A program made the position numbers and the translations under genes. A stretch of DNA of 64,000 bases, taken from Escherichia phage phAPEC8. The notes under the pieces are model-generated. The model did not search any database and had not been told where the DNA came from. It saw nothing but the letters and a program-made list of their open reading frames with translations. The stretch lies in the sequence record NC_020079.1; one strand, 5' to 3'. Below, piece after piece: positions 14,583-58,848 of this stretch; the stretch's first letter is position 1; the number at the start of each line of letters is the position of its first letter.

Positions 14583-17258
14583 ATGTTTCCAATTCCAATA
14601 TTTACTATTATGACCAGCACTGGTGTCGTTCCTCTGCCAGCAGGTATTGTTAAAAAAGTAATCACTTTAGATTACCCAGATAATGCTGGTAATTCTAACA
14701 GCAGTTTAGCAATTTTGCTTAATGATGGTAGATTGTTTACTCAAGGCGCAAACCTTTTTGGTGAGATTGCAGATGGAACTCGTAGTGCACGATTCAATAA
14801 TTTCCACTTAGCTTCTACTGTAGTAGCGGATGTGTTTACCGCAGATCGTTGTTTTGTTATTAAAACTAACAGTGGGGGATGGCAATATTCAGGATTGACA
14901 GCAGGATTGGTAGGATCTATAGCAGCAGGTGGTACGGACGCATGTGTAACTACTTGGACCAGCTTTCCATCTGTAATAACAGGGACTATCTCTTTAGCCA
15001 ATCTTAAAGAGGTTAAGGGAGGATATAACAACACTCTCTGGTTAATGAATAGTGGTGTTCTTTACGGATCTGGTCAAAACACAGTAGGCAGTTTAGGTGC
15101 AAGTACTACTAACGAAGTTTCTACTCCTCGTCAGATAACAAGTGCAGCAGTTGCTTTTGATGCAGGTTACAACCAATGCTCTTATGTCAACAATGTGGGA
15201 ACCTTGCGTGTTTGTGGAGCTAGTAAAGGTTTAGCAGGTAATAATAACACAACAACAGCTTTTGTCAATGCCAAGATATCCGCTACTGAAACAGTGTATG
15301 TCAAAGATTACATCAATACAGTTTCCCAGACAATAGTTGTAGGAGATACCTCCGGTGGCACGGGTGCAGTAAACTACTTATATGTTAGATCTAATACAGA
15401 AACAACCTACACTAAACTGGATACCTTTGCAGCAGGTTTCTCAACATGGAAATTTCCACCAAGCCGCCACTCTTTTTTCGTTGGGATCAATAATTCCTTG
15501 TGGGCTATTGGTAAGAACTACACTGCAAACTTAGGTTTGGGGTATGATTCTGCGAGCGGAGATCCACTTCAAGTGGGAAAACCAGTTAAACCTGAAGGAG
15601 TGGGTTCCTGGGATATAAACAAGCTCACAAGCGTTCATACGCTGAATATGGATGTTACTAACCAATTAGGTTATCAAGGAACCTTTTTCGTTTATAATGG
15701 AGATATGTATTATTCCGGTATTTGGAAAGATGGAAAAGCCTCGTATCTGTTCAATAGTGGTCTAAACTATAATAAATTCACACCAATAGCAAGCTCCGTG
15801 ATTACGGGTGATATTCTGGCAACTGGCTTAACTACGGATTCTTTAGGAATTTGTATTGTAGGTGGAACTAAACAGTTGACACATTCTGTTAGCCCAGAAG
15901 GAGGTAAACTTTTCAATATTAAATATACTTCTTCTGCCCCTGCAAACATGACAATATCGTCTACTGGTTTAATGACTTTCCATGCAGAAGGTGGTTTTGA
16001 TGCAGGTATGACAGCCTTAAACGCTGAAGGAACAACTTTATCAGATACCTCTGGAGGATATGCTTCAACATTGAGTGTTTACACCCCTAGCTTATCTGCG
16101 ATGGATGTAGGAACAACACAAACAATGGTAGCAGAAATAACGCCAACAGGAGCAGCAAGCTTACCTGGCATGGTTGTTGAGTATTTCTCTAATGACCCTA
16201 CGGTAGCAACAGTTGACCCCGTTACAGGCGTTATTACAGCGGTTGCTGATGGAGGTTGTCGTATCGGTTGTAGAGCAACTTATCAAGGTGTGGTAACTGC
16301 CGAAGATAGTTCTTATCTCACAGTGAATGCTGTGGTGATTGTGATGGATTATGATTTGACGCAAGAAACTATTCCGGCGGATGTAAAGGTCAACAGGAGT
16401 AACCGTTATGCCAGGGCTTCTGGAGATATCCTTGTACCTACAGAGAGTTCTGCTCCCGTAGCACCTTTAGAATATGTTGGTACAACTCCACAAGGTAGAC
16501 GTGTTGTAGCAGCCAACCGTACACATATCTTTATCAACAATAACTTGACAACAGCTTCCCCGTGGTTGAAGACGAACTTGACAGTCACAGCATCAACAAT
16601 CAACTCTCCGGTTGGAACTACGGCTAACACTTACAAGTTAACACCTTCTACAACTTCAGGACAACATATTTTATCAGCAGTGAATACAGCTTCTGATATT
16701 ACAGCAGGTAAGCACTGGGCGGCATCCGTATTCTTGAAGCCAGATGGGATCACTAAAGTGAAACTCAAATTGACTTCAGGAGATGAGATTAACGAAGGGA
16801 CTTATGATCTTGTAGCTGGAACATTTACAGGTGCAGATGCAAACATAATCGATATGGGGAATGGTTGGTATCGTGTAATTCTACACAAAGTGACAGTTGC
16901 CAAACAAGCATCTATAACCTATGAGATTATAGCTTTGAATGCAAGTGGATCAGACACTTTCGCAGGAGATGGTACGGCAGGTCTTATTGCTTGGGTTCCA
17001 CAGCTTGAGATGGGGGATATGACAAATCCAGTTTGGGCGGGGACACCATTTGTTTGTTCTTATGCACGAGACACTACCAGTGCTGTTACCTTCACTATTC
17101 CTAAGAATGGACATACTGGCGTGGACATTTACCACACTGATGGTACTGTGCAACGAGAGGTCTTCACTGGTACAGCTACAACTTGGATGTTGACGTTCAC
17201 CGCCGCAAGTGCGGATTGGGGATCGAAGTTCATTACAGGTTTGAAATATTACGACTAA
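14583..17258 (+). CDS. Large virion protein with bacterial Ig-like domain(s)
   Basis: 891 aa; T/S/G-rich; segment MVVEYFSNDPTVATVDPVTGVITAVADGGCRIGCRATYQGVVTAEDSSYLTVNAV resembles a Big_2-type Ig-like fold. Confidence 0.45.
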   Translation: MFPIPIFTIMTSTGVVPLPAGIVKKVITLDYPDNAGNSNSSLAILLNDGRLFTQGANLFGEIADGTRSARFNNFHLASTVVADVFTADRCFVIKTNSGGWQYSGLTAGLVGSIAAGGTDACVTTWTSFPSVITGTISLANLKEVKGGYNNTLWLMNSGVLYGSGQNTVGSLGASTTNEVSTPRQITSAAVAFDAGYNQCSYVNNVGTLRVCGASKGLAGNNNTTTAFVNAKISATETVYVKDYINTVSQTIVVGDTSGGTGAVNYLYVRSNTETTYTKLDTFAAGFSTWKFPPSRHSFFVGINNSLWAIGKNYTANLGLGYDSASGDPLQVGKPVKPEGVGSWDINKLTSVHTLNMDVTNQLGYQGTFFVYNGDMYYSGIWKDGKASYLFNSGLNYNKFTPIASSVITGDILATGLTTDSLGICIVGGTKQLTHSVSPEGGKLFNIKYTSSAPANMTISSTGLMTFHAEGGFDAGMTALNAEGTTLSDTSGGYASTLSVYTPSLSAMDVGTTQTMVAEITPTGAASLPGMVVEYFSNDPTVATVDPVTGVITAVADGGCRIGCRATYQGVVTAEDSSYLTVNAVVIVMDYDLTQETIPADVKVNRSNRYARASGDILVPTESSAPVAPLEYVGTTPQGRRVVAANRTHIFINNNLTTASPWLKTNLTVTASTINSPVGTTANTYKLTPSTTSGQHILSAVNTASDITAGKHWAASVFLKPDGITKVKLKLTSGDEINEGTYDLVAGTFTGADANIIDMGNGWYRVILHKVTVAKQASITYEIIALNASGSDTFAGDGTAGLIAWVPQLEMGDMTNPVWAGTPFVCSYARDTTSAVTFTIPKNGHTGVDIYHTDGTVQREVFTGTATTWMLTFTAASADWGSKFITGLKYYD

Positions 17259-17261
17259 TAA

Positions 17262-17295
17262 AAAAGGGAACCCGCAAAGGTTCCCTTTTCTTTTA
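17262..17295. terminator. Bidirectional intrinsic terminator between convergent modules
   Basis: AAAAGGGAACC-CGCAAA-GGTTCCCTTTT flanked by A-run and T-run; lies between the last + strand structural gene and the first - strand gene. Confidence 0.6.
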
Positions 17296-17321: not shown

Positions 17322-18209
17322 TTAGAATGGGATATCATCGTCGAAGTCCATTGGAGGTTCTTCTTGATTGCTTGGAGTTGGTTCTGGTTGTGGTTCAGGT
17401 TTCTTCTCTTCTTTCTTCTCTTCTTTCTTAGGTTGTTCTGCGGAACCACGAATGGCAGCAGCAACTTTATCAGACAGAGCCAGAACTTTACGAGCAGAGT
17501 CAATCAGATCTTCTACAGATACAGTCTTAATGGTATGGTCTTTACAAGCATTGAGAATAGCGTGACCAACAGATGCCCCAAGATCATAATCATTAATATC
17601 AACGCCACGAGATTCAGCAATTTCAGATTTCAGCGTGACAGTTGCAGATTGAACAACCCCAGCGATATCGAAAGCATCGCCTTTAACACCATTACGAATC
17701 AGTTCCAGTGCACCATTTACTGCGTGACCAGTTTCCAGACCTACAGTATCACGTTTTTTATAGGACTGCTTAGGAGCAGCATCGTTGGAACCTTTATTGC
17801 CAGAAGATTTGTTAGACTTCTGAACACCATCGGTAGACAATACTGTAATACGAGATTTTTTAGTATTGTAGTAAGTCTTACCGCCTTTATTATCAACGCG
17901 ATCAATATCAATACTTACTTCTACACCTTTTTCAATAGTGATCCAATTATCACCTTCTTTGACTTGCAGGTTTTCATAACCTTCTTTCAGTTCAATGTCA
18001 CCAAGAGAAATCCAAACACCTTTCTCATCTGGTTTAGCACCTTTCTCTTTCAGAACAAGAGAAGCTCGGTGAGTTGAAACAATCGTTTTCCCTTCCCAAT
18101 GAAAAGTTTTAGGTTCAGCGAATTTATCCAGTTTAACGTAGTCTACGATACCAGTTGCATAAGTTACGGTTTTGCCTTTACGATCAGTTTCAGTATTAAT
18201 TACGGACAT
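17322..18209 (-). CDS. ssDNA-binding protein candidate with acidic C-terminal tail
   Basis: 295 aa; Lys/Glu/Pro-rich linker then C-terminus MDFDDDIPF identical in character to the bacterial SSB tail tip; adjacent to replication genes. Confidence 0.5.
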   Translation of the reverse strand: MSVINTETDRKGKTVTYATGIVDYVKLDKFAEPKTFHWEGKTIVSTHRASLVLKEKGAKPDEKGVWISLGDIELKEGYENLQVKEGDNWITIEKGVEVSIDIDRVDNKGGKTYYNTKKSRITVLSTDGVQKSNKSSGNKGSNDAAPKQSYKKRDTVGLETGHAVNGALELIRNGVKGDAFDIAGVVQSATVTLKSEIAESRGVDINDYDLGASVGHAILNACKDHTIKTVSVEDLIDSARKVLALSDKVAAAIRGSAEQPKKEEKKEEKKPEPQPEPTPSNQEEPPMDFDDDIPF

Positions 18210-18225
18210 TATTATCTCCTCTACA

Positions 18226-18618
18226 TTACATTAATTTTGCACAGAAAGAGCGGAGTCTTTCCATATCATCTTGCTCTAACAGGTATTTACCTTTACCTAT
18301 TCCAACTCCAATTTCACCATTAGGAAAATGAACTATTTGCACTGGGAAACCTCCGAGTTTAATTGTGGCAGCTTTGCCTTCTTCGTCTATAACGTTTCGG
18401 ATTGTATCTTGCAGTGAAATGAATTCTTTGTTTGTAACAGTGGTTTCAATTATTTCAGATGTTTCGACACGAGCAGTTAGCTTCTTGTTTCCACCTTGAA
18501 TAACCAAAATTTGAAAATAAAAAGAGTTGTCAAGACCTACAACATTTTTCTCAACTAGTGTCAAACTGGTATAGTTTCCATAAACAGTTTCAACAGCTAT
18601 CTTAGAACGTTCAGTCAT
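18226..18618 (-). CDS. Hypothetical protein
   Basis: 130 aa ORF, compact operon context. Confidence 0.35.
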   Translation of the reverse strand: MTERSKIAVETVYGNYTSLTLVEKNVVGLDNSFYFQILVIQGGNKKLTARVETSEIIETTVTNKEFISLQDTIRNVIDEEGKAATIKLGGFPVQIVHFPNGEIGVGIGKGKYLLEQDDMERLRSFCAKLM

Positions 18619-18663: not shown

Positions 18664-19257
18664 TTACCAAGGAATATCATCTTCTTCCAATCTGGTATCT
18701 ACTTGAGGTGGACGTGGAACCTTAACCTCTTTCACAAAACGAAGATATGGGAAACGTGTAGCAATTTTAATAACATGTTTGGCATCTTCTCTAACATCTT
18801 TGTGCAAGAAGCAGATCCCTGTTTCCAAGGTTGTTTCAAAATCTTTAGAATAATAACAGTCCTTCCCATCAAATGCAGCCTGGCAGATGGACAGATCGAA
18901 CTCATTTAGAAAGGTTGTCATTACGCTTGGTTCCATAATCATAAGGTTGCAAAGCTGACCATCACGTTCAAACTCAAAAACGTGTTTAAGACCAGTAACA
19001 CCTTCATAATTGTCAGAAGCCTCTTTGTTCCCTAGTTTACGAATATTGGTTCCCATTAAAGCAGATGCAATTAATCCTTGTATTTGTTCTTCAGTCCGAT
19101 GTGCAGGAAGGGATGTATAGAAATCCAGATCACGTCCAGCAATATCAAGAATACGCCAATCACGAACAGCACCGCCAGCCAAGACAGAATTAGGATCAGC
19201 GATCTTTAATATGGTAAGAATTTCTTTGGCAATATTGATTTGTTTTGATTTAGTCAT
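18664..19257 (-). CDS. Minimal class II nucleotidyltransferase (CCA-adding/poly(A) polymerase head-like)
   Basis: 197 aa; LAGGAVRDWRILDIAGRDLDFYT carries the GGAVRD signature and downstream D-x-D; C-terminus EEDDIPW. Confidence 0.5.
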   Translation of the reverse strand: MTKSKQINIAKEILTILKIADPNSVLAGGAVRDWRILDIAGRDLDFYTSLPAHRTEEQIQGLIASALMGTNIRKLGNKEASDNYEGVTGLKHVFEFERDGQLCNLMIMEPSVMTTFLNEFDLSICQAAFDGKDCYYSKDFETTLETGICFLHKDVREDAKHVIKIATRFPYLRFVKEVKVPRPPQVDTRLEEDDIPW

Positions 19258-19468
19258 TGATACGCTCCACAGTTACTTTTACAACATCGTCCATATTAAT
19301 CTCATCCCCCAAGACCTCAATAACACCTTCCTCATAAAGTCGAGCACATTCTTCCCACACTTCAGCTTCCGTCATTCCACCTGCAATCTTATTTGCAAGA
19401 CCTTTAATAACATCTTCATTTTGTTCATCAACAAGAATTGAAACATTAAAGCTCACTAATTTACGCAT
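19250..19468 (-). CDS. Hypothetical protein
   Basis: 72 aa; RBS AAGGAGA upstream; start-overlaps the upstream stop. Confidence 0.35.
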   Translation of the reverse strand: MRKLVSFNVSILVDEQNEDVIKGLANKIAGGMTEAEVWEECARLYEEGVIEVLGDEINMDDVVKVTVERIND

Positions 19469-19478
19469 TGTTTTCTCC

Positions 19479-19646
19479 TTATACTTCTAAACGGAAAGTT
19501 TCTTTAGATACAAAATCGTATCCACCTTTTTCAAGCCAATCGTTGTAAACCTCATCGGCTTGAGACTCTATCATAAAATACCGAGTGGTAACTTCGTCTC
19601 CGACAATACGCACAATTTTATAGCAAATCATGATACCATTTCCCAT
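19479..19646 (-). CDS. Small hypothetical protein (55 aa, below ORF-track cut-off)
   Basis: ATG preceded by GGAGGAAG; translation MGNGIMICYKIV...FRLEV; fills an otherwise non-coding gap. Confidence 0.3.
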   Translation of the reverse strand: MGNGIMICYKIVRIVGDEVTTRYFMIESQADEVYNDWLEKGGYDFVSKETFRLEV

Positions 19647-19837
19647 TAATCTTCCTCCAGATCAATTTCATTATAACAATGTATACAGAAACCATCATTG
19701 TGCATATGTTGTTCATAAGACATATCTTTACCACAAGACCAACAACGGATATCCCCATCGTCCCATTCACGTTCTTCTTCACCTTCAAATTCATCTGGTA
19801 GGTAAGGCATACCAAAATAATCTAAATCGTAACTCAT
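19646..19837 (-). CDS. Small zinc-ribbon protein
   Basis: Start chosen at internal ATG (MSYDL) preceded by AGGAGA; CWSCG...CIHC pairs; the longer track ORF would overlap the polymerase. Confidence 0.4.
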   Translation of the reverse strand: MSYDLDYFGMPYLPDEFEGEEEREWDDGDIRCWSCGKDMSYEQHMHNDGFCIHCYNEIDLEED

Positions 19838-19850
19838 ATCTTCTCCTATA

Positions 19851-19868
19851 AAGGGGCAGAAGCCCCTT
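19851..19868 (-). other. Intergenic hairpin after the DNA polymerase gene
   Basis: AAGGGGC-AGAA-GCCCCTT between polymerase stop and next RBS; no strong U-tract. Confidence 0.35.
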
Positions 19869-19886
19869 ATAAAACAATACGTTAGA

Positions 19887-22484
19887 TCAATGACAGGATG
19901 CCCAGGAATTACCCACATCATATCCGGCAGTAAGCTGAACATTAAGATTGTAAAATTCTCCAGCCTTAGTAACAGCTAAGGCAGCAAGTTCACCTGCCCG
20001 ACTATAGGCTGTAAACCATCCACCTTTGGGAGATTCATGAATGTTAGCCCAAATTTGTCCCGTCTCTTTTTCCTTATTATGCTTCCATTCTTCAACTTTA
20101 GCAAGGCATTCTTTATCAATTTTCTTTTGTTCTTCAGGATCGTCTACTTTCTTCCAACCTAACGATTCAGGTGAAAACCATTTGAATTCTACAAGGTTAC
20201 GAGAAACTTCAAGCTGGGCTTCATCGTGATATGCGATCATTTGTTGCACGAAGTCTTTATTCTTCCAGTCATCTTTAAAGAAGTCAACACTTAGTCCTTC
20301 TTCTTCGATCATGTCGTCATAAATAACCATTGCACGTTTAGCACAGATAACCCCACCACTTTGGAACAGAGAGTTAAGAATCGCGTGAGCAGAACGAGTA
20401 GGAACCTTACGACCGTCAATACCCAAAACATATTGTTTACCAGTCTTAACCCAGAAATCGTTTAAACGTTCTTTAAGACGCGCCAATGGGAATGCAGCTT
20501 CCCAGAAAGCATCGAACACCAATTGACCTGTAAACTTATCGCTACCAATTGTTTTAGCAACCTTGTCGGCTTGTGCACCATAGGTAATACCATACTTAAC
20601 AGATTTAGCAGGACTACGTTCAAATTTACGTCCAATAGTTTCAGTGATACGTTTTGCCATCATTGTGTGAACATCATTAGGTTTCTCTAACAGCAGAGCG
20701 TTACAATATTCGTGTGGCTCCGGCTCGTACCGCCAACAGTAGTGTGATTCAATTTTTGCTTCCAAAGAGTCGAAGTCGTAGCCGATCTGGAAGTATTTAG
20801 GAACCTCTACACCAAACAAGTTACGCATCTCCCATCCAAACAAAGATGTGACACGAGGAATATTAGCTACAGATCTATGCTTCATACGAGAGGTTGCAGC
20901 ATCACATGTAGCGGCTGGTGTAGGAATACGCCCATCCGCCCTTACTGCGGCTAAGAAACCTTTATCGTATTCTTGATCTTCTTCGTCTTCTTCCCAATCA
21001 GCACCGCCACCTAAAATAGAGTTCCTACGATGCTTATACGTTAAGTATTCTACAATCTGTGTAGCATAAGGGAATTTCTCACCCAAAGCTTGCAGGTTAG
21101 GACAGATTTCTTTTTCCTGACCTTTGGTAAAACATGGGTTAGTCAATACTTTAAGACCGCGACCTTTACCTTTTGCTATACGCTCTTGAATCTTCCTTTC
21201 CAAGGTTTCCGGTGTGCACTCCAGATGATCACAACGGTCCTGACAAAAATTAGAAGATAGAGTTTGCTCAACGTAAGCTCGAATACCTTTCTGAAGTTCT
21301 TCCTCGCTCTTTTTAATCTTGGTGCCAGATTTAAGAGTCAAGTCTTTATCTTTATATTCAGACGGTACCCAACCTAATCCTACAAGCCAGTTTTTAATAT
21401 GGGTTGTATCGTTCAATGTTGCAGGGATGTTAGGATCACACAGAGGCTCATCTGCTGCAACTGGCAGTTTCCACTCTTTCCCCAACATAACTAACCACCA
21501 ATCGCCATCCCTCTCTTCCAAATGACCATCATGTTTCTTAGCAAAATTGATCATATGGTTAGTTGGCTCTAAGTTCTTTTTAATTTGCAACTTAGGTGGA
21601 ATAAAAGCTTTAAGATAACCTTTTGTTGCTGGTTTAGGTGGCAAAATAGGCTCAACGAGTAAACGAAGACGCTCCATTTCTGCATCCAAAAAAGCAAGGT
21701 TCTCTTCTGCTTGTTTCATGTTAAAAGCAAACCCACGGTGTTCCTGGCGTGTAATAATGTCTGCTACACGTTGTTCAAGTTCAAATGGACCTTCCCATTT
21801 ATCATAATCACCCCATTCTTCCATAAGGTAATTATATACGCTCGTATTGGCTTTGTTGTCATAGATACAGTAATAAAGCATATCCGCAGCAAAAGTCTTA
21901 AATCGATCTTCTTCTGGAATCTCTTTACGGAAATCTATTTTTACATCACCACCTGCTTTTCGAGAAAGTGCTGCCAAGCTATGTCCTGATTTGCCCTCAA
22001 TCTTTCGATCTGGGTTTAACACTTTACTCAAAATCAAGGAGTCAATAAGTTTTACCTTATTTTTGCCCCACGTATTATATTTAACACTGTAATCTAATCC
22101 ATAAAACAGTTTTGTAGCCAACCAGTCGTAGTTGATACCGTTGTGAGCCACAGCCATTTCAACCAGATATTCAGGCTTGTCTTTAAAATAACCTTCATGA
22201 TTAATAAAATCTGGGAAATCTTTTAGTTGAAAATGTGTGTAATCTTGTGCCACATACTCTTTAAGAACATATGTGTATTTACCATCTGACTCTTCATAAG
22301 GACGCCCATCAAAGATGTATTTAGGGCCATCGTGGAAAGCTACTATTTCTCCTGTTTCATGGTTCTCTAAGACAATACAGTGCATTTGAAATGTGTCTTT
22401 GAGACGATAAGGACTAGCTAAATAATCAATAGTGTCATTATTCAACAATCCGTTTGCTTCAATATCCCATGTAAACTTACTCAC
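19887..22484 (-). CDS. Family A DNA polymerase, T7 gene 5-like
   Basis: 865 aa; N-terminal WDIEANGL (Exo I D-x-E); RSPAKSVKYGITYGAQ (motif B); IAYHDEAQLEV (motif C); C-terminus ...NSWASCH parallels T7 gp5 ...NWAICH. Confidence 0.85.
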   Translation of the reverse strand: MSKFTWDIEANGLLNNDTIDYLASPYRLKDTFQMHCIVLENHETGEIVAFHDGPKYIFDGRPYEESDGKYTYVLKEYVAQDYTHFQLKDFPDFINHEGYFKDKPEYLVEMAVAHNGINYDWLATKLFYGLDYSVKYNTWGKNKVKLIDSLILSKVLNPDRKIEGKSGHSLAALSRKAGGDVKIDFRKEIPEEDRFKTFAADMLYYCIYDNKANTSVYNYLMEEWGDYDKWEGPFELEQRVADIITRQEHRGFAFNMKQAEENLAFLDAEMERLRLLVEPILPPKPATKGYLKAFIPPKLQIKKNLEPTNHMINFAKKHDGHLEERDGDWWLVMLGKEWKLPVAADEPLCDPNIPATLNDTTHIKNWLVGLGWVPSEYKDKDLTLKSGTKIKKSEEELQKGIRAYVEQTLSSNFCQDRCDHLECTPETLERKIQERIAKGKGRGLKVLTNPCFTKGQEKEICPNLQALGEKFPYATQIVEYLTYKHRRNSILGGGADWEEDEEDQEYDKGFLAAVRADGRIPTPAATCDAATSRMKHRSVANIPRVTSLFGWEMRNLFGVEVPKYFQIGYDFDSLEAKIESHYCWRYEPEPHEYCNALLLEKPNDVHTMMAKRITETIGRKFERSPAKSVKYGITYGAQADKVAKTIGSDKFTGQLVFDAFWEAAFPLARLKERLNDFWVKTGKQYVLGIDGRKVPTRSAHAILNSLFQSGGVICAKRAMVIYDDMIEEEGLSVDFFKDDWKNKDFVQQMIAYHDEAQLEVSRNLVEFKWFSPESLGWKKVDDPEEQKKIDKECLAKVEEWKHNKEKETGQIWANIHESPKGGWFTAYSRAGELAALAVTKAGEFYNLNVQLTAGYDVGNSWASCH

Positions 22485-23278
22485 TATCCCTCCTTTCTAA
22501 TGTTCTCCAGAACCCACTGAAGTTCTTTTAAACTTAAACTTCTTACTCCCGCAGTTTTACTAGCTTCAGCTTTAAGTAACGGGTAAGCCTCAATGATACG
22601 CGTTTTAAGATCAGAAGTCAAGGCTTTTAAAAAATAGGTAGATGCTTCAGATAAAGAATCCTCTTCTGATAACACTTTACCTGCACTTGCTCCCGCTCTC
22701 CTAACGGCTATGTCGTAGTCTTTACTGTTGCCTAATACGAATAGTCGATTTTCTCCTAAAACAACGGGAGAACGCTTCTCGTTGCGTTTAATCCATATCT
22801 GGAATACACAAGGAACATCCCAAGGTTCTCCATGAAGAATAAAAGATCCTTTTGGACATTCTTCTTCGTAAAGAAGATGCATGTGGGGATTTAGTTTGTG
22901 TGCAAAAAAGATTTTTTGAAATGTGCGAGGCAAGATAAAACAAATACCACCTTCGTTATCCAGCATTTCAGCACAATGGTTAAAGAATTTAATGGCAAGA
23001 CTAGCATTTTTTCCAAACGGAGGATTACCGACAAAAGCAGTTACACTGCCAACAGACTCAACAGATTGAGCTAAAAAATCTGCCTCAATACAATCTTCAA
23101 ACTTAGGGTCAATATCAAAAGAAGTTATGTTTTTAAAACAAGAAGAGAAAGCTCCTTCTCCCGCAGATGGTTCTACGTAGTTAGCTTCCTCTCCAAAAAT
23201 TTCTTTGATCTTATCACATAAGAACCCCGCATAAGCGGGGTTAGTGTAATATTGATCAAGTGTGTTCAACTTGCTCAA
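22484..23278 (-). CDS. N6-adenine methyltransferase (probably DNA)
   Basis: 264 aa; EPSAGEGAF (AdoMet-binding motif I) and GNPPFG (NPPF catalytic motif IV). Confidence 0.6.
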   Translation of the reverse strand: MSKLNTLDQYYTNPAYAGFLCDKIKEIFGEEANYVEPSAGEGAFSSCFKNITSFDIDPKFEDCIEADFLAQSVESVGSVTAFVGNPPFGKNASLAIKFFNHCAEMLDNEGGICFILPRTFQKIFFAHKLNPHMHLLYEEECPKGSFILHGEPWDVPCVFQIWIKRNEKRSPVVLGENRLFVLGNSKDYDIAVRRAGASAGKVLSEEDSLSEASTYFLKALTSDLKTRIIEAYPLLKAEASKTAGVRSLSLKELQWVLENIRKEG

Positions 23279-23797: not shown

Positions 23798-23813
23798 AAG
23801 GGCCGAAGCCCTT
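23798..23813 (-). other. Hairpin at the primase-helicase stop
   Basis: AAGGGC-CGAA-GCCCTT overlapping the stop codon. Confidence 0.35.
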
Positions 23814-25590
23814 AATAGTTGCTATCCGTAGGCAAATTAGCAGGATTGTTGAAATACTGCTCTTTGTCATGCAGAGTTGCAGTTCTAATGTCATAGTAAA
23901 ACTGCCCTGCCGGACCAGTTTCTGAGAACTCACGGTTTTTTAGGATAAAGCAATGAGTCGTATTGCGTTCTACAGGGTCTTCAGCGGCTTTATCTCGTTC
24001 CAAAGCCAAGGTAATACCAGCACCTTTAGCCAAGAAACTACTACCCATTGCATCGTCCTCTGTTAAGTGTTCATTGCCACCATTAGCCGATTTCTTAACG
24101 TGTGAGATGACAATAATAGTTATAGCATACTCTTTCATGATGCGCTTCAACCATGTTGCTAACTCTTCCTGGGCTTGAACATCCATACCAGAAAGCAAAT
24201 CAGAATAAGGGTCGATAACAAGAATTGTTACTCCAAAATAGATGATCATCTCCAAAACTTTTTCTTTGATAGACTCCACATCTGCTCCACGATCATCACA
24301 CACATAAAAACGTGGTGATCCATCTTCTCTTTCGTAAAAATCTAGGATTTTTTCTTTATTCTCTTCCAAGATTTGAAATTTCTCTTCCGGTGTTTTCCTG
24401 TGTAGAGGAATATGCAGGAACGAGGACAACAGGTTACGAGAATATTTCTTATAAGTTGCTTCCAAGGACAGAATACCTAGGGTATGTTCTGGGTGCGCAA
24501 CAATAATATGTTTGGTGATCTCGTTCACCATCAAAGTTTTACCGATACTGGTCTTTGCCAGGATAACTGTAATCTCTTCCTCTACTAAACCACCACCCAG
24601 CATATTTGCAGCAACACGCATAAAAGGAGGCAAGGTAATCATCTTGGATTCCAAGCATTCTAATGCAGCTTCATACAAGACATTAGAAGCATAAACACCT
24701 GCTGGGGTGTATAGACGAGCACTCCAAAAAGCTTTTACGAAATCTTTTGCACGACCTTCTTCCAGATACTGATTGGCATCCTTAAGATCCATCTGCATAC
24801 GGTAGACTTTGTTACGAGGCAACACCTTAACAATATTTTCAAATGCCTCATTACCTGCTTTGTCATTATCCATGCAAACAATAATCTTCTTAAATTTTTC
24901 AAAGAAAGGATATTGTGCCTGAACTTGTTTATACATACTGGTTTCACCAGTTGTGCCACTAACTACTGCTGGAAGTTCATATTTGTTGTCCAAGTTTTCA
25001 GACAGCATTTGATAAGCTGCCAGAGCATCGTGTTCACCACCTGTAATTACCACAGTATGAGAACGGTCTGCAAAACGAATTTGTCCAAAAAGATCTACAT
25101 CTTTACCTACTTGACCAATAGGTTTACTGAAATCTTTAGGATGAATACGACGCTTAAAACCAACCAATTCTTTACCGATAGTAGTTGGATATAAACAACT
25201 TTCTACTACCATCTGATCCCCTTCCTGGCGGTATTCATAACGAACACCATAGAAAGATGAAACTTTTTCTTTAATGCCTCGATAACCACGTGGGTTGGTT
25301 GATGTTTCTTGAACAATTTTACGATGAATCTGTTTATTAAATTCCGAACCCACAATCTCCTCCTCTTCTTCTAAAACTTCACCATTTTCTCGTAACCATT
25401 CTACGCTAGGAATAGTGTATTCACACGCAAAGCACTTAGCACCTTTATGCTCTCCATTAGAATCTAATCCATAAACCATCAGGTTATTACGAGAGCGATC
25501 CTTGCCATTTTTCATGCAGCGCGGACAACCTGTATGTCCTTCCTTGCTAAGATCAACATCAAATCCATATTTAGTTATAATGTGCGACAC
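23812..25590 (-). CDS. Bifunctional primase-helicase, T7 gp4-like
   Basis: 592 aa; N-terminal Cys4 zinc ribbon (CPRC...CFAC); central primase region; C-terminal DnaB-like helicase with Walker A-like AKTSIGKT. Confidence 0.75.
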   Translation of the reverse strand: MSHIITKYGFDVDLSKEGHTGCPRCMKNGKDRSRNNLMVYGLDSNGEHKGAKCFACEYTIPSVEWLRENGEVLEEEEEIVGSEFNKQIHRKIVQETSTNPRGYRGIKEKVSSFYGVRYEYRQEGDQMVVESCLYPTTIGKELVGFKRRIHPKDFSKPIGQVGKDVDLFGQIRFADRSHTVVITGGEHDALAAYQMLSENLDNKYELPAVVSGTTGETSMYKQVQAQYPFFEKFKKIIVCMDNDKAGNEAFENIVKVLPRNKVYRMQMDLKDANQYLEEGRAKDFVKAFWSARLYTPAGVYASNVLYEAALECLESKMITLPPFMRVAANMLGGGLVEEEITVILAKTSIGKTLMVNEITKHIIVAHPEHTLGILSLEATYKKYSRNLLSSFLHIPLHRKTPEEKFQILEENKEKILDFYEREDGSPRFYVCDDRGADVESIKEKVLEMIIYFGVTILVIDPYSDLLSGMDVQAQEELATWLKRIMKEYAITIIVISHVKKSANGGNEHLTEDDAMGSSFLAKGAGITLALERDKAAEDPVERNTTHCFILKNREFSETGPAGQFYYDIRTATLHDKEQYFNNPANLPTDSNY

Positions 25591-32604: not shown

Positions 32605-33094
32605 TTATAGGAAGTGTTACAAGAGGATCATCTTCTTCAATTTCCATCTTGTCATCTTCTGTTTCAATGAGAGTATTATGCACTTTGTGATAAGGGTTGT
32701 CAACACGTTTAAACTTATTCTTTTCTGTGCTGAAAAAACAATCTGGATCTTCTTCACCATCACCCCAACCTTGGTTAGGATCTCCGTCAGATTGTTCTGT
32801 AGGGATTTCACCTGTAAAGTACTCTTCCAGCACCATAGCGATACCGTCCCTTGGATTTGAGGAATGCATCAAATCACAAACCTTACTCCAATCCATAGCC
32901 CATTCAAATCGTTCACGAACACCATTTTCATCCTCCTTTCCAGAGAAAACACAACCATAACTATCATAGTTGCCATACATCTCTTCAATAACAACACCGT
33001 CCTTCAAAAGAAAGAGATAACAAGGTGATCCGTCGAAAGAAGTAGAAAGGGCAGCTTTGCCCGATTCTTTGCACAAAAAGCTAAAACAACCCAT
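32531..33094 (-). CDS. Hypothetical acidic protein
   Basis: 187 aa ORF. Confidence 0.35.
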   Translation of the reverse strand: MGCFSFLCKESGKAALSTSFDGSPCYLFLLKDGVVIEEMYGNYDSYGCVFSGKEDENGVRERFEWAMDWSKVCDLMHSSNPRDGIAMVLEEYFTGEIPTEQSDGDPNQGWGDGEEDPDCFFSTEKNKFKRVDNPYHKVHNTLIETEDDKMEIEEDDPLVTLPISELQKITKEAYDLGFKIGRGGMRV

Positions 33095-33492
33095 TACAAA
33101 CCCTCCTTCAGATTATCAAGAGCTACAGTGGTTTCACAAAATTCTCCATAAGCTTTATGATGTTCCAGAAAAGCTTCGGGTCCACCCCAGTCATTATCTT
33201 GTGTATTCCAGCCATCAATAAAAGCATCTTCAATGATTGTGATCAGTTCCTGTCGAGTCAACGTAATGGTATCAGGTTTCTGCGTAGTTTCCACACGGAA
33301 CCCTGGTTCTTCATAAAAACCTTTAGTTACAATGGATTCTAACTCTTCTGCATCACAGAGGAAGTAGCCACAAAGATAACACCCACCGTCATCATCTTTC
33401 ATTACTTCATAAACTTCACCACTTGCTAACTTGATGAAAAGAGTAGGGTCTGTTACTGTAAGTTTTAAAAGAATACCTGTTGGATTATACAT
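33094..33492 (-). CDS. Hypothetical protein
   Basis: 132 aa ORF; start-overlaps the upstream stop. Confidence 0.35.
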   Translation of the reverse strand: MYNPTGILLKLTVTDPTLFIKLASGEVYEVMKDDDGGCYLCGYFLCDAEELESIVTKGFYEEPGFRVETTQKPDTITLTRQELITIIEDAFIDGWNTQDNDWGGPEAFLEHHKAYGEFCETTVALDNLKEGL

Positions 33493-33658
33493 CTTCTTCC
33501 TCCTCTAAGATATGGAACCCGTAATTACAATAATCCTGAAAGGTTTCGTGTGCAAGATCTTCTATATCTTCTTGAGACATATCATCTTCAATTTCGATAT
33601 CTACAACCTCATTGCATCCACACCAAGCCGTTTCAATATTCACTCGTAATATTTTCAT
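33485..33658 (-). CDS. Small acidic protein (57 aa, not in ORF track)
   Basis: ATG overlaps upstream TAA (TAATG) and its stop overlaps the next ATG; MKILRVNIETAWCGCNEVVDIEIEDD... Confidence 0.3.
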   Translation of the reverse strand: MKILRVNIETAWCGCNEVVDIEIEDDMSQEDIEDLAHETFQDYCNYGFHILEEEEDV

Positions 33659-33858
33659 TACTCCTCCTCCTCCTCATTGAAGTCAATATCTGCAAGGAGT
33701 TCGAATTTACGGAAGTTACGACAACCTTCATAAATATAACAATCACGACAAACTGCTAGAACACTTGGGGGATATATGCCTCCCATCGGTGCGAATCGTT
33801 TTTCGTCATCATAACGGACACCAATGTCTTCATCAATTATATAGATACGGATTCTCAT
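33658..33858 (-). CDS. Small Cys-containing protein
   Basis: 66 aa; CRDCYIYEGC; acidic C-terminus; coupled to telA stop. Confidence 0.35.
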   Translation of the reverse strand: MRIRIYIIDEDIGVRYDDEKRFAPMGGIYPPSVLAVCRDCYIYEGCRNFRKFELLADIDFNEEEEE

Positions 33859-34967
33859 TTACCAAGCCCTCGTTTCACAGCAGCTACCATCCCGTCTTCC
33901 AGAGATTGAACTTCATTAATATAATCAACACGAGCAGCACGGGCTTCCGTATTGATGCGGTTAGTTTCTTCCAACATCTTAACCAAGTTTTCCTGATCGT
34001 GACGCAGAGTTTCAATATCCAACACTTGACGGTTAGCCAGTGCTGCTGCTTCGATCTGATTCTGTGTGGCAAGATCGCTACCCAGTTTAATTGCCAGGTT
34101 AAATTCATCAAGAACGTTATTCTGCGTCTCTGCTGCTTTCATTTGACGTAAGCTCTCGATATACATTGAGAAGTTAGCAGAGTAAGCAGGAATAACATTA
34201 TTTACTATGTTACGCGCAGATCGCATTAAGCTTGCAGAAACTTTTTGCATACCTTGTACACGCGGTCCCATTTGGACACACAGTAGGCGCAATGCTTTTA
34301 AATCTGCAATACGAATCTCCAGAAGATCCAAAGTATCTCGGATCACTTGTCGCTGTTCTACTGCATCTTCTGGAAGAGCAGCCAAAGCTTGTTCTTCTTT
34401 TTCATAGGTTGCTGTTAGAAGCTGCATATCTCGGTTCAAACTTGCAGCATATTGTCCAATAGCTTGATGTAGCTTTTCAAGATATACCAAGGAATCTTCT
34501 TCTTTGCGAATATCCATTTGAAGGTTCTTTACCAACTCTTCAATACGGTTATTAACATTATCAAACTCCCCAAACAGATCTTCTTTCATACCCATAACTT
34601 TTTTAATGAGTTTAGTAATACCCTTGCTTTGTTTAATAGAGTTTGGATCAAGTTGTTTTGCCTGTTTAATCAAAGCTGTGAGTCGTTCACTCATCTGATC
34701 GCCTTGATTACTACGTTGATGTTTTAATACCTCGGCATTCAAGGAACGCAAGGTTGTTCCTGCCTCTGCCCCAATCTCTTCAATCTCTTGTCGGGTCATA
34801 GAAGGCAAAACTGGAACTTCTTGCGGTGCCGCTGGTGCATAAACAGGACTGGCATCTAACACGCTTGGAGCGAATACAGATTTACTTGCATCGGTTGTTG
34901 CAGCAAATACGCTCATTTCAGGCTTCTTCTGACCACCAGTAGCTGCTTTTAAAAATGGACTTGTCAT
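33855..34967 (-). CDS. telA: TelA/KlaA-like toxic-anion-resistance family protein
   Basis: 370 aa, largely helical/coiled-coil, size and composition of the TelA family; sits in a Ter gene neighbourhood. Confidence 0.6.
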   Translation of the reverse strand: MTSPFLKAATGGQKKPEMSVFAATTDASKSVFAPSVLDASPVYAPAAPQEVPVLPSMTRQEIEEIGAEAGTTLRSLNAEVLKHQRSNQGDQMSERLTALIKQAKQLDPNSIKQSKGITKLIKKVMGMKEDLFGEFDNVNNRIEELVKNLQMDIRKEEDSLVYLEKLHQAIGQYAASLNRDMQLLTATYEKEEQALAALPEDAVEQRQVIRDTLDLLEIRIADLKALRLLCVQMGPRVQGMQKVSASLMRSARNIVNNVIPAYSANFSMYIESLRQMKAAETQNNVLDEFNLAIKLGSDLATQNQIEAAALANRQVLDIETLRHDQENLVKMLEETNRINTEARAARVDYINEVQSLEDGMVAAVKRGLGK

Positions 34968-35554
34968 TCTTCATTCTCCTCTTCTGCATCTCTTATATAT
35001 GGTGAAACACCGTACTCTTTAGCTACTTTAACCCAATCGTCCCATTTATACAACCATAATTTTCCTTCGGTCCCTTCTTTATCTGATTTCAACCACATAT
35101 TAGGTTGCTTACCTGGGTACATGCGATTAGGTTTACGATTATAACCTCTAACACATCTTGTCGCAAACCCATCTACCAGAACAAGAACATATTTATATTC
35201 GTGGTTCAACGGCTCTTTGGAAGTGGCTTTAGGATTAGCCCCTAATTCTGCTGCCAGTTTTTGCCAATGAGCACCGTGCCTACTAAACTTACCCATACAA
35301 CCATCAATAGCATGAGCAATTTCGTGCTTCATTGTGTCCACGATCATATCTCTTGTGGAGTTCTTATGCAAGTGCCAATTTACAACAACAATTTTATCTC
35401 GGTAGTTGCACCAACCGAAAGAGTTATTCACTTTGTTTCTAACACAAGCTTTATATCCTGCTTCACGTAACATGTTGTAGTAAACAGGAAAATCTTCTTT
35501 TATTTCCTGCATCACTTCCCACCACAAGAGTTGCAAGTCTCTCTCGGTATGCAT
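34964..35554 (-). CDS. SprT-like zinc metallopeptidase
   Basis: 196 aa; HEIAHAI (HExxH) followed by GKFSRHGAHW. Confidence 0.5.
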   Translation of the reverse strand: MHTERDLQLLWWEVMQEIKEDFPVYYNMLREAGYKACVRNKVNNSFGWCNYRDKIVVVNWHLHKNSTRDMIVDTMKHEIAHAIDGCMGKFSRHGAHWQKLAAELGANPKATSKEPLNHEYKYVLVLVDGFATRCVRGYNRKPNRMYPGKQPNMWLKSDKEGTEGKLWLYKWDDWVKVAKEYGVSPYIRDAEEENEE

Positions 35555-35557
35555 AAC

Positions 35558-36151
35558 TTACACCTTAAAAGCGAAATGCGTGGTCGTGGCTTCAAAATCA
35601 GGGCCAGATAAACTTGCACTGAAATCTGAAATATTTGTAATTAAAAAGCTTTTATGCATACCTAACACAGCCACGCTTTCAATATCTTCTACTAACATTT
35701 CAATCATGTTAGAAACATGGCTGAACGTATAGTTTTGTTTTTTGATGGTGTAGAAAGAAAGACTCCCACCTGCTGTATAAGATACCTCTTCAAAATCTTT
35801 AATCGTATATTGTGTACCATCAGTAAAGAAAATGGTAGCTTTATTAGTAGCACGTTTCTTGTTTTTTGGTCCTTTTTTACGTTTACTGCGAGTAGGCAAA
35901 CCGTTTGGGAACACCGTAGCTACAAATTCTTCAGGGGAAACCTCCTTACCGAAATCATAATCGTAAGAAACAGCGTCTATACACTCGTCGTCTTCATTTT
36001 TAAAATAATGAAAATAGGGCCAATTTGAGAGATTATCGAGCATCTTATGCGCATCCACAACAGAGAACGTATCCCTCAAAGCACGTGTGATTTGCAAAGC
36101 ATTAGGCAAACTTTTAACACCTGTAATGGAAGTACGAATAGAAATTGTCAT
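35558..36151 (-). CDS. Hypothetical protein
   Basis: 197 aa ORF. Confidence 0.35.
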   Translation of the reverse strand: MTISIRTSITGVKSLPNALQITRALRDTFSVVDAHKMLDNLSNWPYFHYFKNEDDECIDAVSYDYDFGKEVSPEEFVATVFPNGLPTRSKRKKGPKNKKRATNKATIFFTDGTQYTIKDFEEVSYTAGGSLSFYTIKKQNYTFSHVSNMIEMLVEDIESVAVLGMHKSFLITNISDFSASLSGPDFEATTTHFAFKV

Positions 36152-36165
36152 TGTTTTTCTCCTTA

Positions 36166-36603
36166 TTAACGTCGCTTGCTACGAGATGAACTCTTTTTAC
36201 TTAAAGGGCTATTGTAAGATTTACGAGTTGTATAGCTACTATTTGTTTTAAAAGTTTGTCTCGGCTTTTCATAAGTTTTTATCTCTTGTTTAGGCTTACC
36301 ATAAAAATTAGTTTTCGGTTTAGGTGTATTATAATGCTTATTAATAATCGTTCTGTTATCGTTATAATCCCCACTGCTACGATTACTACCACCACTCATC
36401 ATATGCCCTAACAACATACCTGTAGCAAACTCACCAACACCGCTACTACTAGAACCGCCACCATTGTTGATAATAGTTGTATCTCCGTCAGATCCTTGTT
36501 GAGCGTATTGTTGAGGAGGTTGTTGGTATTGTGCAGGATTTGTTTCATCCTCGCAAGCTGTTAAAAAGATACAACCAATTAAAATCAGGGCTAGTTTTTT
36601 CAT
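36166..36603 (-). CDS. Lipoprotein with Gly/Ser-rich region
   Basis: Start at ATG behind GAGGAAAG; signal MKKLALILIGCIFLTAC (lipobox LTAC); Q/G/S-rich linker. Confidence 0.5.
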   Translation of the reverse strand: MKKLALILIGCIFLTACEDETNPAQYQQPPQQYAQQGSDGDTTIINNGGGSSSSGVGEFATGMLLGHMMSGGSNRSSGDYNDNRTIINKHYNTPKPKTNFYGKPKQEIKTYEKPRQTFKTNSSYTTRKSYNSPLSKKSSSRSKRR

Positions 36604-51339: not shown

Positions 51340-51593
51340 TTTACTTCCCCTTTGTAATCGGACACTATACCAGGTCTTACTTTTGCCTTAAGATGTTTCA
51401 ACTCTGCCATAGGAGTTGCCACTTGTATAGGGTTAACTTCAACCTCGTAGATAGTATACTCATAACCCGCATACTTCCCGATGGAATGCAGGTATTTGAT
51501 AGCATGTTCAGGTGAATCTGCTTCAACATACCCCAAATCTTTTGTAGTGCGGCCTTCACAGTCGCCTTCTGTAGTTACGTGATAAAGTGTCAT
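51336..51593 (-). CDS. Hypothetical protein
   Basis: 85 aa ORF. Confidence 0.35.
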   Translation of the reverse strand: MTLYHVTTEGDCEGRTTKDLGYVEADSPEHAIKYLHSIGKYAGYEYTIYEVEVNPIQVATPMAELKHLKAKVRPGIVSDYKGEVK

Positions 51594-51739
51594 AAAACCT
51601 CCTCATAGTAAGGTAAAGCCTTGATCAGTTGTTCTGAAGTGCCATTTTGCACCCACGTAACACCCTTGTCAAGAGAAACATACCCTTTCTTATTGATAAA
51701 TTTACGGAGACAACCAGTGAACTTGTTTTTGTAGATCAT
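51590..51739 (-). CDS. Small hypothetical protein (49 aa, not in ORF track)
   Basis: ATGA overlaps at both ends (translational coupling); MIYKNKFTGCLRKF... Confidence 0.3.
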   Translation of the reverse strand: MIYKNKFTGCLRKFINKKGYVSLDKGVTWVQNGTSEQLIKALPYYEEVL

Positions 51740-52179
51740 TTCTTCTTTCCTTTCTTTAATTTGTTGTGACCTTTACCCTTATAAAGCTTGTGATTACGAG
51801 TAGACGGGTTATTTTGGTTCTCCAGTCGGCTAACAGGTGTATTCCAAAGGTTTCCTGCTACAAAAGATGCTGCCACAAGTTCTTCCAGGTATACAAAATC
51901 CAAAGCAGGTATCTTTGTTTCCCTCATCTCGCGTTCTACATTAGACAACACGCCTTCTTCCTTACTGTCTTCTTTTTCAATTACAGACCAACCCTCTTCC
52001 TGCCAAGCTTCTCCTCTGAACCAAGTTTCCATGTTATAACCTTGTTCGTCGAGAATAACACCATCTCGCATCTCAAACCATTCGCCACCACAAAAATGGC
52101 GGTGCTCAACACGTCTACCTTCCTTCATTGCTTCTTTAGCTTCGGGCCAAGTCAGTTTGATGTTTTGGATGTTTTGCAT
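51736..52179 (-). CDS. Hypothetical protein with Lys-rich tail
   Basis: 147 aa; first gene of the - strand block. Confidence 0.4.
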   Translation of the reverse strand: MQNIQNIKLTWPEAKEAMKEGRRVEHRHFCGGEWFEMRDGVILDEQGYNMETWFRGEAWQEEGWSVIEKEDSKEEGVLSNVEREMRETKIPALDFVYLEELVAASFVAGNLWNTPVSRLENQNNPSTRNHKLYKGKGHNKLKKGKKK

Positions 52180-52209
52180 TTGTTTTCTCCTTTTGTTTGG
52201 TAGGAGTTG

Positions 52210-52268
52210 ATCTTAACAAGATTAAAAAGTATGTCAATACTTGATCTGAAATTATTTTCAGGTATCAT
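52210..52268. promoter_or_regulatory. Divergent sigma70-like promoter pair at the strand switch
   Basis: - strand TTGACA-N17-TAAGAT (+ coordinates 52210-52238) and + strand TTGATC-N16-TATCAT (52241-52268). Confidence 0.45.
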
Positions 52269-52293
52269 GTATGAACATTAACAAGAGAGGTAG

Positions 52294-52587
52294 ATGATGA
52301 ACATTACTTTAGCAACTAAGAATATTTCTGAAACAATTAACGGTTTTGGTGTGATTGTAGCCTTGCACGGTAACAATGAGAAATGGTTGGCTTCTTTTGA
52401 AGAAGATCGTCAACACAACATTATTTTAGATGCCCCTATAAAAGTTATGCATATCGTTGGTGAAAACAAAGTGCTCACTTCCTCCCGTTCAAAGGAACAA
52501 ATTACAAACGAATTAGTAAAACTGCTTGACAATGTTCTTAACATGTTTGATAATGCGCCCATCGACACAAAACGTGTCTTAATGTGA
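52294..52587 (+). CDS. Hypothetical protein
   Basis: 97 aa ORF. Confidence 0.35.
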   Translation: MMNITLATKNISETINGFGVIVALHGNNEKWLASFEEDRQHNIILDAPIKVMHIVGENKVLTSSRSKEQITNELVKLLDNVLNMFDNAPIDTKRVLM

Positions 52588-52599
52588 AAGGAGAATATA

Positions 52600-58026: not shown

Positions 58027-58039
58027 CAAAGGAGAAACT

Positions 58040-58757: not shown

Positions 58758-58812
58758 TATTTTAACTTTTTTCATTTTTAGAACAAAGGTGTCACTTTGT
58801 AGCACAGAAATA

Positions 58813-58848
58813 AGGCTCCTACAGCACCGTAGAGAGCCTGTTATTTTG
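58813..58848 (+). terminator. Rho-independent terminator ending the + strand block
   Basis: AGGCTCCTAC...GTAGAGAGCCT stem followed by GTTATTTTGT. Confidence 0.5.

Follow-up and report, generated by a model that had tools for sequence, protein, structure and literature searches.

A Gad2-related mini nucleotidyltransferase encoded within the replication-gene block of Escherichia phage phAPEC8

Gabija anti-defense 2 (Gad2) is a 400-amino-acid (aa) protein of Bacillus phage SPbetaL7 that is needed to overcome Gabija, a system described as acting at phage DNA ends upon RecBCD inhibition. Gad2 is a predicted nucleotidyltransferase (NTase) that is toxic when expressed and whose knockout is viable on hosts without Gabija. 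Its mechanism was still not elucidated according to a review of February 2026, a preprint of March 2026 treats it only as a known inhibitor, and no explaining paper was found in our literature search. Many other phage genomes are recorded in GenBank as encoding a "putative tRNA nucleotidyl transferase / poly(A) polymerase" or simply a "nucleotidyltransferase." We examined one such gene, located on the minus strand at 18664..19257 of a 64,000-nucleotide (nt) stretch (the window) of Escherichia phage phAPEC8 (NC_020079.1), a Phapecoctavirus (rV5/phAPEC8-like Escherichia myovirus). Profile comparisons, a predicted structure and an analysis of gene neighborhoods indicated that its product belongs to a very large family of mini-NTases, that it is related to the catalytic domain of Gad2 and that the family is linked to DNA replication genes.

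The open reading frame (ORF) starts with ATG, occupies exactly 18664..19257 with the stop codon included and encodes 197 aa, in agreement with the length given in a preliminary description of this DNA. A GGAG Shine-Dalgarno sequence can be read ∼7 nt 5′ of the start, which shares an 8-nt overlap with the stop of the 72-aa ORF before it. The protein is acidic (isoelectric point [pI], 5.3) and 100% identical to anhysbys_4, and the surrounding 6-kb region is 99.3% identical to that of phage vB_EcoM_3A1_SA_NWU. Motif A (G28-G29-A-V-R32-D33-W34 ... D43-L-D45; 19123..19176, minus strand) provides a glycine turn and two catalytic aspartates within residues 26 to 46, LAGGAVRDWRILDIAGRDLDF (LAGGAVRDW...RDLDF). 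The GGAVRD and D-x-D elements previously reported were both found, at residues 28 to 33 and 43 to 45, and a regular-expression search of all six frames of the window for GG[AS]xRD...DxD, or for the looser GGxxRD, returned this site only. Databases already list the gene under its family and as an NTase, and dozens of deposited phage genomes include it under a name. A literature search found no paper characterizing any phAPEC8-type NTase.

The protein matched phrog_10174 (E = 7.9e-63; residues 1 to 128) and phrog_1614 (E = 1.8e-11; residues 4 to 184), both labeled only "nucleotidyltransferase." When 1.84 billion representative proteins were searched exhaustively with a profile, 2,146 relatives were detected at E ≤ 0.001, of which 725 reached 1e-10, corresponding to a family of >2,100 clusters at 50% identity. 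The 150 best-scoring of these 2,146 relatives were almost all 175 to 220 aa long and matched query positions 1 to 175; a small size is thus the native state in this very large family and not the result of truncation. Ten family proteins of 254 to 400 aa had extra regions without any Pfam domain, and these lengths may reflect gene-call starts. Phrog_1614 also matched phi92 gp158 (2e-34), the NTase of a Zobellviridae vibriophage, ORF223 of Vibrio phage ICP1, Gp22 of Klebsiella phage fHe-Kpn01 (1.3e-39) and Gad2 itself (8e-6). Gp22 has 182 aa and has been described as toxic in Escherichia coli. ICP1 ORF223 (L003:3956-4375) is a 139-aa head-only form that lacks the C-terminal subdomain; its neighbors are DNA ligase and NAD-salvage genes, and it does not lie beside a polymerase gene.

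Conservation was counted on a family alignment of 104 sequences. Residues G28, G29, W34, D43 and D45 were unchanged in all 104 members, R32 was present in 100 and D33 in 96. The invariant or nearly invariant positions comprised Q6, A10, P22, A27-G-G-A-(P/V)-R-D-W34, D43, D45, Y84 and K164, and strong conservation extended to Y47, Q104, F120, S123, C125, W128, K130, F140, Y155, H/Y161, K/R168, F169 and P170. A candidate third catalytic carboxylate is E95 (18973..18975, minus strand), which fits the h[DE]h pattern of Pol-beta NTases and lies on V93-F-E95-F-E-R within a strand predicted at residues 90 to 98. The corresponding column contained E in 61 members, D in 11, N in 17 and Q in 4 (a carboxylate in 72 and an amide in 21). 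As a probable third carboxylate, E95 is thus conserved but not universal.

The relationship with Gad2 was examined with Gad2 sequences from the supplement of the original paper and with 120 homologs, all of which, except for one truncated protein, carried the Pfam domain PF26128 ("Gad2"). Comparisons by hhalign of the mini-NTase family with single Gad2 sequences gave probabilities of 93 to 94% (E = 2 to 3e-7; 114 to 120 columns), and comparison with a 117-sequence Gad2 alignment gave 96.6% (E = 5.7e-10) over 123 columns, which covered query residues 11 to 154 and ended at residue ∼141 on the Gad2 side. The same approach detected nothing significant between Gad2 and a profile of the CCA-adding enzyme Cca. 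In precomputed Pfam annotations, PF26128 was assigned to a homolog with 60% identity to the phAPEC8 protein (P0009) and weakly to two others (P0014 and P0150); none was on record for the exact phAPEC8 protein, and these assignments come from the annotation records of its homologs. These alignments show homology between the NTase and the Gad2 catalytic domain, and Gad2 is the closest relative of the NTase with a tested phenotype. Residues 25 to 131 of one Gad2 homolog (P0282) weakly matched the PADLOC candidate defense model PDC-S19 (E = 3.8e-4), a hint that phages and their hosts may both deploy NTase domains of this kind against each other.

An AlphaFold2 model of the NTase had a predicted local distance difference test score (pLDDT) of 85.4 and a predicted template-modeling score (pTM) of 0.79. 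The model consisted of an alpha/beta head, a C-terminal subdomain of ∼50 residues and a disordered tail of ∼20 residues starting from ∼178, which bears out the earlier remark that no body or tail domains were visible. Residues 120 to 177 (F120-D-L-S123-I-C125...F140...H161..K164...F169-P170; 18727..18900, minus strand) form the small subdomain that replaces the neck, body and tail of class II enzymes. A structure prediction had been proposed as a means of seeing whether a nucleotide-selecting body domain was missing; the head was of the class II type, and this domain was absent from the model, as were the neck and the tail. In Foldseek searches of the PDB, ranks 1 to 31 were all class II CCA-, CC- or A-adding enzymes or bacterial poly(A) polymerases (PAP) (E = 1e-5 to 4e-3; template-modeling [TM] score, ∼0.5), followed by Pol lambda, terminal uridylyltransferases and MenT1. 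In the viral structure library BFVD, the best matches were many small uncharacterized phage NTases with TM scores of up to 0.82, including ICP1 ORF223 and proteins of phiKMV/KP34-like, Pectobacterium, Caulobacter and Vibrio phages. Weak phmmer matches of the single sequence to the PYL1 abscisic-acid receptor in the PDB were spurious, and this candidate relative was rejected.

The location of the gene next to replisome genes was confirmed, as a family-A DNA polymerase (PolA) gene lies three small ORFs upstream and a gene for a protein resembling single-stranded DNA-binding protein (SSB) lies two genes downstream. The order PolA, NTase, 130-aa protein and SSB-like protein recurred in phi92, in Klebsiella phage 05F01 and in a metagenomic contig (L007), the only informative one of four contigs that were looked up by exact protein, since the other three were shorter than 1.1 kb. 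In the unrelated podovirus fHe-Kpn01 the NTase gene overlaps the 3′ end of the PolA gene, and in the Zobellviridae vibriophage a 5′-3′ exonuclease gene is followed by the NTase gene. A broader sample comprised 80 IMG/VR loci with family members, collapsed to 46 clusters at 60% identity, whose neighborhoods were queried with PolA, primase/helicase and 5′-3′ exonuclease sequences from annotated examples. At least one of these genes, by queries that other polymerase types escape, was detected within 7 kb of the NTase gene in 33 of the 46 clusters, within 2.5 kb in 27 and within 1.3 kb in 22; a helicase homolog lay within 7 kb in 32 of the 46.

The nearest polymerase or helicase gene was on the same strand as the NTase gene in 52 of 54 cases. 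Among the 30 contigs of at least 40 kb, PolA was found within 2.5 kb in 11, compared to ∼3 on the rough expectation of a single-copy gene placed at random (binomial P of ∼9e-5), and a helicase gene was found within 7 kb in 18, compared to ∼6.3 (P of ∼4e-6). Overall, in phages that are not related to one another, the statistics tie the family to genes for family-A polymerases and primase/helicases.

A further link to replication was suggested by the C terminus of the protein. The last codons (18667..18726, minus strand) encode a disordered Pro-rich linker followed by an acidic, aromatic-ended tip, VKVPRPPQVDTRLEEDDIPW, which resembles the C-terminal tip of SSB. The C terminus, PRPPQVDTRLEEDDIPW, ends in EEDDIPW and was modeled with a mean pLDDT of ∼50 for residues 181 to 197 and of <50 for residues 189 to 196. 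The last 11 residues of the neighboring SSB-like protein are identical to the end of E. coli SSB, NEPPMDFDDDIPF (PPMDFDDDIPF). Among the 261 ORFs of at least 50 aa in the six frames of the window, endings of the form [DE][DE]IP[FW] were present only in the NTase and the SSB-like protein. The EEDDIPW tip was kept in all 10 close homologs examined (P0001 to P0010), down to 58% identity, and analogous acidic, aromatic-ended tips occurred in a few distant members (PAPWDEEF, DFSDEW and SFSDDDF), of which the PAPWDEEF member adjoins an SSB-like protein ending in DFDDDIPF.

In Vibrio phage 1.235.O (Zobellviridae), a 232-aa protein encoded near the 5′-3′ exonuclease and NTase genes (L004:1759-2457) ends in DDGEDIPW. 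This protein is probably the SSB of that phage with a W-ended variant of the tip, and on this evidence IPW occurs as an SSB tip variant. The C-terminal tip of SSB is a docking peptide for many replication and repair proteins, and the T7 polymerase is bound by the tails of gp2.5 and gp4, which are acidic and end in Phe. We infer that the tip would recruit the NTase to the replisome or to SSB partners.

The current annotation names a tRNA nucleotidyltransferase or poly(A) polymerase. The preliminary description had likewise identified a class II tRNA NTase/PAP head and had suggested that it might repair tRNA 3′ ends damaged by host defenses; a minimal CCA-adding or repair enzyme could act on such ends or on tRNAs of the phage itself. 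The GGAVRD...DxD motif is a class II signature, and CCA-, CC- and A-adding enzymes were the best matches among solved structures, so that the motif A and fold components of the class II assignment held up. A match to the PolyA_pol profile (PF01743) was indeed detected, at motif A only (profile positions 3 to 41 of 126), with a score of 13.9 bits (E = 0.07) that lies under the gathering threshold of 23. Across the family, 15 of 104 members matched this profile at E ≤ 0.01 (best E, 3.9e-5), and none of the NCBIfam models matched the NTase.

Profile searches of PDB sequences placed class II enzymes on top, weakly (E = 0.007 to 0.014) and across motif A only, and hhalign comparisons of the family with the single sequences of E. 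coli Cca or PcnB were confined to 24 to 50 columns at the same motif. Comparison with a combined Cca and PcnB profile gave a probability of 43% over 25 columns, a value that understates any true relationship, as the Cca reference profile was narrow (≥68% identity); the structure searches cover this gap. A greedy hhalign alignment of low confidence placed EFDLSICQAAF opposite RRDLTINALA of Cca (motif B) and REDAK/HVIKIATRF opposite GEDPLRVLRVARF (motif D). Because the alignment extends to those segments, the NTase appears to keep a faint echo of motifs B and D, and its E157-D158-A-K-H161 (EDxxH) resembles the EDxxR of motif D, although the alignment with Cca in that region is the greedy, low-confidence one (43%). 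The segment equivalent to the RRD of motif B is E119-F120-D121, with a family consensus of x-F-[P/S/D/G], and the ED pair of the motif D region varied across the 104-sequence alignment, in which only H/Y161 and K164 were kept.

No RNA-binding domain, such as the PolyA_pol_RNAbd domain (PF12627) that true Cca relatives carry, was matched in the NTase by a Pfam scan. No tRNA genes were found in the window or in positions 1 to 50,000 of ESCO13 (NC_047770.1), a phage of the same genus. ESCO13 has ten tRNA genes at 57537-59549, and CCA is genomically encoded in 10 of 10. This phage also has an adjacent RNA ligase and phosphoesterase pair (51441-52926) that resembles the T4 Rnl1/Pnkp tRNA-repair module, as a candidate only. 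The ten tRNA genes and this pair suggest that the genus invests in tRNA biology, in favor of a CCA-adding enzyme, but both lie ∼40 kb from the NTase gene and not beside it. Beyond motif A and the head fold, the hallmarks of CCA-adding enzymes were absent or gave no clear result, because RRD and ED..R are not conserved, body and tail are missing, the protein is acidic and the tRNAs encode CCA. The CCA label is probably wrong. Since the closest relative with a tested phenotype is Gad2 and since the gene travels with DNA replication genes, the protein is probably not a tRNA CCA-repair enzyme; we regard both the minimal CCA-adding enzyme and the proposal of tRNA 3′-end repair as improbable.

The best reading of these results, which we favor tentatively and rate somewhat short of an even chance, is that an active mini-NTase of the Gad2 type cooperates with the replication machinery in a counter-defense or replication-protection role. 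The preliminary description had offered as an alternative a repurposed NTase with a new substrate; the Gad2-type homology favors such a non-CCA reading. The analysis demonstrates the ORF, the motif, the fold class, the size and architecture of the family, the homology to Gad2, the neighborhood statistics and the similarity of the tip; catalytic activity, recruitment through the tip, an acceptor at replicating DNA and an anti-defense role are what we infer. The protein would be a stand-alone Pol-beta-superfamily NTase of a phage-specific mini-NTase lineage, expressed within the replication block. The GG turn and D43/D45, together with E95, would bind a nucleoside triphosphate or deoxynucleoside triphosphate with Mg2+, and a nucleotidyl group would be transferred to a 3′-OH. 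In this clade, EEDDIPW on its flexible Pro-rich linker would imitate the SSB tip and bring the enzyme to proteins onto which SSB tails dock, either the phage polymerase/helicase or host partners of SSB, and hence to replicating phage DNA. There, it would act in counter-defense or replication protection in the manner of Gad2 and not in tRNA CCA addition or repair. A more specific proposal, which we consider rather doubtful, is that the NTase tethered by an SSB-tail mimic tails or caps 3′-OH ends of replicating phage DNA or primers and thereby blocks end- or nick-sensing defenses such as Gabija.

Several observations weigh against a Gad2-type role at the replisome. No replication gene was detectable within 7 kb in 13 of the 46 clusters, and replication genes cluster with each other, so that the enrichment tests are not independent and the chance expectation is rough. 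The homology to Gad2 covers the NTase core only, and the C-terminal domain of Gad2 (∼250 aa) is absent from the 197-aa protein. Gad2 also lacks the RDW of the signature and has ITSLF where mini-NTases have an invariant (P/V)RDW, and it is encoded in an anti-defense locus rather than in a replication module or beside a polymerase gene. In ∼20% of members, N or Q takes the place of the third carboxylate. Of 160 family proteins examined, 10 have the tip, all in the Phapecoctavirus-like clade, and it is lacking in phi92 gp158 and in the vibriophage members; with so narrow a distribution, it is unable to account for what the family as a whole does.

The same evidence was considered in relation to other functions. 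A replication or recombination accessory without a defense role would add untemplated nucleotides to RNA primers, Okazaki 3′ ends or genome ends and, in doing so, prime, mark or protect intermediates for a replisome of T7-like PolA and primase/helicase. The conserved same-strand adjacency to PolA, primase/helicase and 5′-3′ exonuclease genes is in keeping with such an accessory, as are the SSB-like tip, which suggests docking onto the replisome or SSB partners, and the ranking of Pol X-family DNA polymerases just under the class II enzymes in structure searches. However, many phages with the same type of replisome lack the gene, and this sporadic distribution argues for an accessory function of the conflict type rather than for a core one; to our knowledge, T7 itself has no such NTase gene. 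In addition, Gad2 is an anti-defense gene whose loss is tolerated on Gabija-free hosts, and the truncated 139-aa copy of ICP1 is far from its polymerase gene. Both the enzyme as a whole and the stated purpose of serving replication intermediates are unlikely on this balance. A host-takeover toxin that, like MenT, tails or blocks the 3′ ends of host RNA or tRNA early in infection is quite improbable: no sequence relationship to MenT or AbiEii was detected, PADLOC searches were blank, the gene lies in the replication block and not in an early host-takeover region, and over-expression toxicity, the sole observation behind this idea, is nonspecific.

The small acidic protein, with no obvious nucleic-acid-binding domain, might instead synthesize a nucleotide signal or decoy (a cyclic or linear oligonucleotide) that jams a nucleotide-sensing host defense. 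Production of cGAMP and c-di-AMP competitors by phage NTases has been documented, and MNT-like NTases have been reported to act against TIR-STING, but the signature of that known phage family differs and is absent from the NTase, which makes a decoy synthase very improbable. The family of MNT-like NTases that synthesize cyclic dinucleotides (Ho et al. 2022) was rejected as a home for the protein, as its signature, GS-x-AY[GAN]T-x4-SDxD, was absent from the protein and from the six frames of the window. The NTases of defense systems (CD-NTase, MenT/AbiEii and others) were rejected as well, since no PADLOC model matched the NTase at E ≤ 0.1. Finally, a catalytically inert scaffold or competitive decoy that presents an SSB-like tip would account for the mimicry and for the variability of the third carboxylate. 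With GG, D43 and D45 invariant across 104 diverse members and the tip missing from most of the family, this explanation is scarcely credible.

The remaining features of the block in which the gene lies were examined in the window. The block is tightly packed and runs in one direction, with all of its genes on the minus strand. At its upstream end lies a T7-type primase/helicase gene (23812..25590), which is followed in gene order by a 143-aa ORF and by an N6-adenine methyltransferase gene (22484..23278). The T7-like PolA gene (865 aa; 19887..22484) has its own AGGAGG ribosome-binding site and a GTG start. Three small ORFs of 72, 55 and ∼63 aa (19250..19942; PHROGs 25475, 22931 and 25582), whose functions are unassigned, separate it from the NTase gene. 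Between the NTase and SSB-like genes lies the gene for a conserved 130-aa protein of unassigned function (phrog_16560; 18226..18618). The SSB-like protein (295 aa; 17322..18209), which ends in EEPPMDFDDDIPF, an exact copy of the host SSB tip, is named as SSB in several records.

A GC-rich palindromic hairpin flanked by A/T runs (17262..17289, with no strand assigned) has a perfect 11-bp stem (AAAAGGGAACC...GGTTCCCTTTT) and lies between the replication block and a convergent tail-fiber-like gene (14583..17258, plus strand). Judged by its sequence, it is likely a bidirectional terminator that closes the polymerase-NTase-SSB block. No minus-strand terminator-like sites were found between 17322 and 24500, and a promoter scan detected 18 sites compared to 18.9 in shuffled sequence and so revealed no excess.

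Several further observations concern the neighbors of the NTase gene. Only residues ∼246 to 295 of the SSB-like protein match SSB PHROGs, and the N-terminal 245 residues match only phrog_4477, whose function is unassigned. Orthologs of the 130-aa protein occupy the same position in phi92 (gp157) and in contig L007, and the C terminus of this protein is conserved (EIGFGIGKGKYxLExDD...C.KxM); it may be a functional partner of the NTase or of its SSB-like neighbor. In several close relatives, including anhysbys (L001:4039-7371), the polymerase gene contains an extra in-frame 735 bp (245 aa), giving a coding sequence of 1,110 aa, and the polymerase of the window lacks this 245-aa insertion, which looks like an intein or another in-frame mobile insertion. 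In ESCO13, regions 19719-20850 and 33046-36324 encode Sir2-like proteins and a dTDP-rhamnose/nucleotide-sugar pathway; NAD-related or DNA/surface-modification roles of these genes are possible and may bear on defense evasion.

The homology of the family to Gad2, its statistical linkage to genes for PolA and helicases and the occurrence of an SSB-like tip in one clade were not found in the literature searched. Together, they provide a testable lead on how Gad2-type enzymes defeat DNA-targeting defenses. If the link to Gad2 is functional, the ∼180-aa catalytic core would be a much simpler handle on Gad2-type enzymes and would suggest that counter-defense enzymes are routinely embedded in phage replication modules. 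Tailing or capping of 3′ ends, if it occurs, would disclose the catalysis that these enzymes have in common with Gad2; the >2,000 clusters would then constitute a very widespread type of counter-defense enzyme residing in such modules. The annotation "tRNA nucleotidyltransferase/poly(A) polymerase" is probably misleading and should be downgraded to "Gad2-like nucleotidyltransferase, substrate unknown."

In comparison with known systems, the NTase shares motif A and the head-domain fold with class II CCA-adding enzymes and PAP (E. coli Cca and PcnB; PDB 1miv, 3aql, 3h37 and 4wby), but it is less than half their size, has no neck, body or tail, is acidic and lies in the context of a replication module. 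A head-only class II-like protein has already been solved, the bacterial stand-alone "CCA-adding enzyme head domain" of Streptococcus pneumoniae (PDB 2la3; NP_344798.1; 191 aa), and the fold class of the NTase is ordinary in this respect, although no sequence similarity between the two was detectable in hidden Markov model (HMM) searches. The C-terminal tip shares with that of SSB an acidic run and an I-P-aromatic sequence at the extreme end after a disordered Pro-rich linker; unlike the SSB tip, it is carried by an enzyme and not by an OB-fold protein, and it is both shorter and terminated by W instead of F. Phi92 gp158, ICP1 ORF223 and fHe-Kpn01 Gp22 resemble the NTase in family or superfamily (by HMM), size and fold, and in phi92 and fHe-Kpn01 the position beside PolA is the same as in the window; the DDIPW tip is not theirs and is specific to the Phapecoctavirus-like clade. 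Gad2, which likewise has no SSB-like tip, has in common with the mini-NTases the AGG turn, DxD, the Q of the strand equivalent to that of Q104, the FD[LF][ST][IV]C segment (FDFTVC in Gad2) and F140. It is also phage or prophage encoded (in Bacillus SPbeta-like elements) and, as in the mini-NTase group, expression is toxic in some cases.

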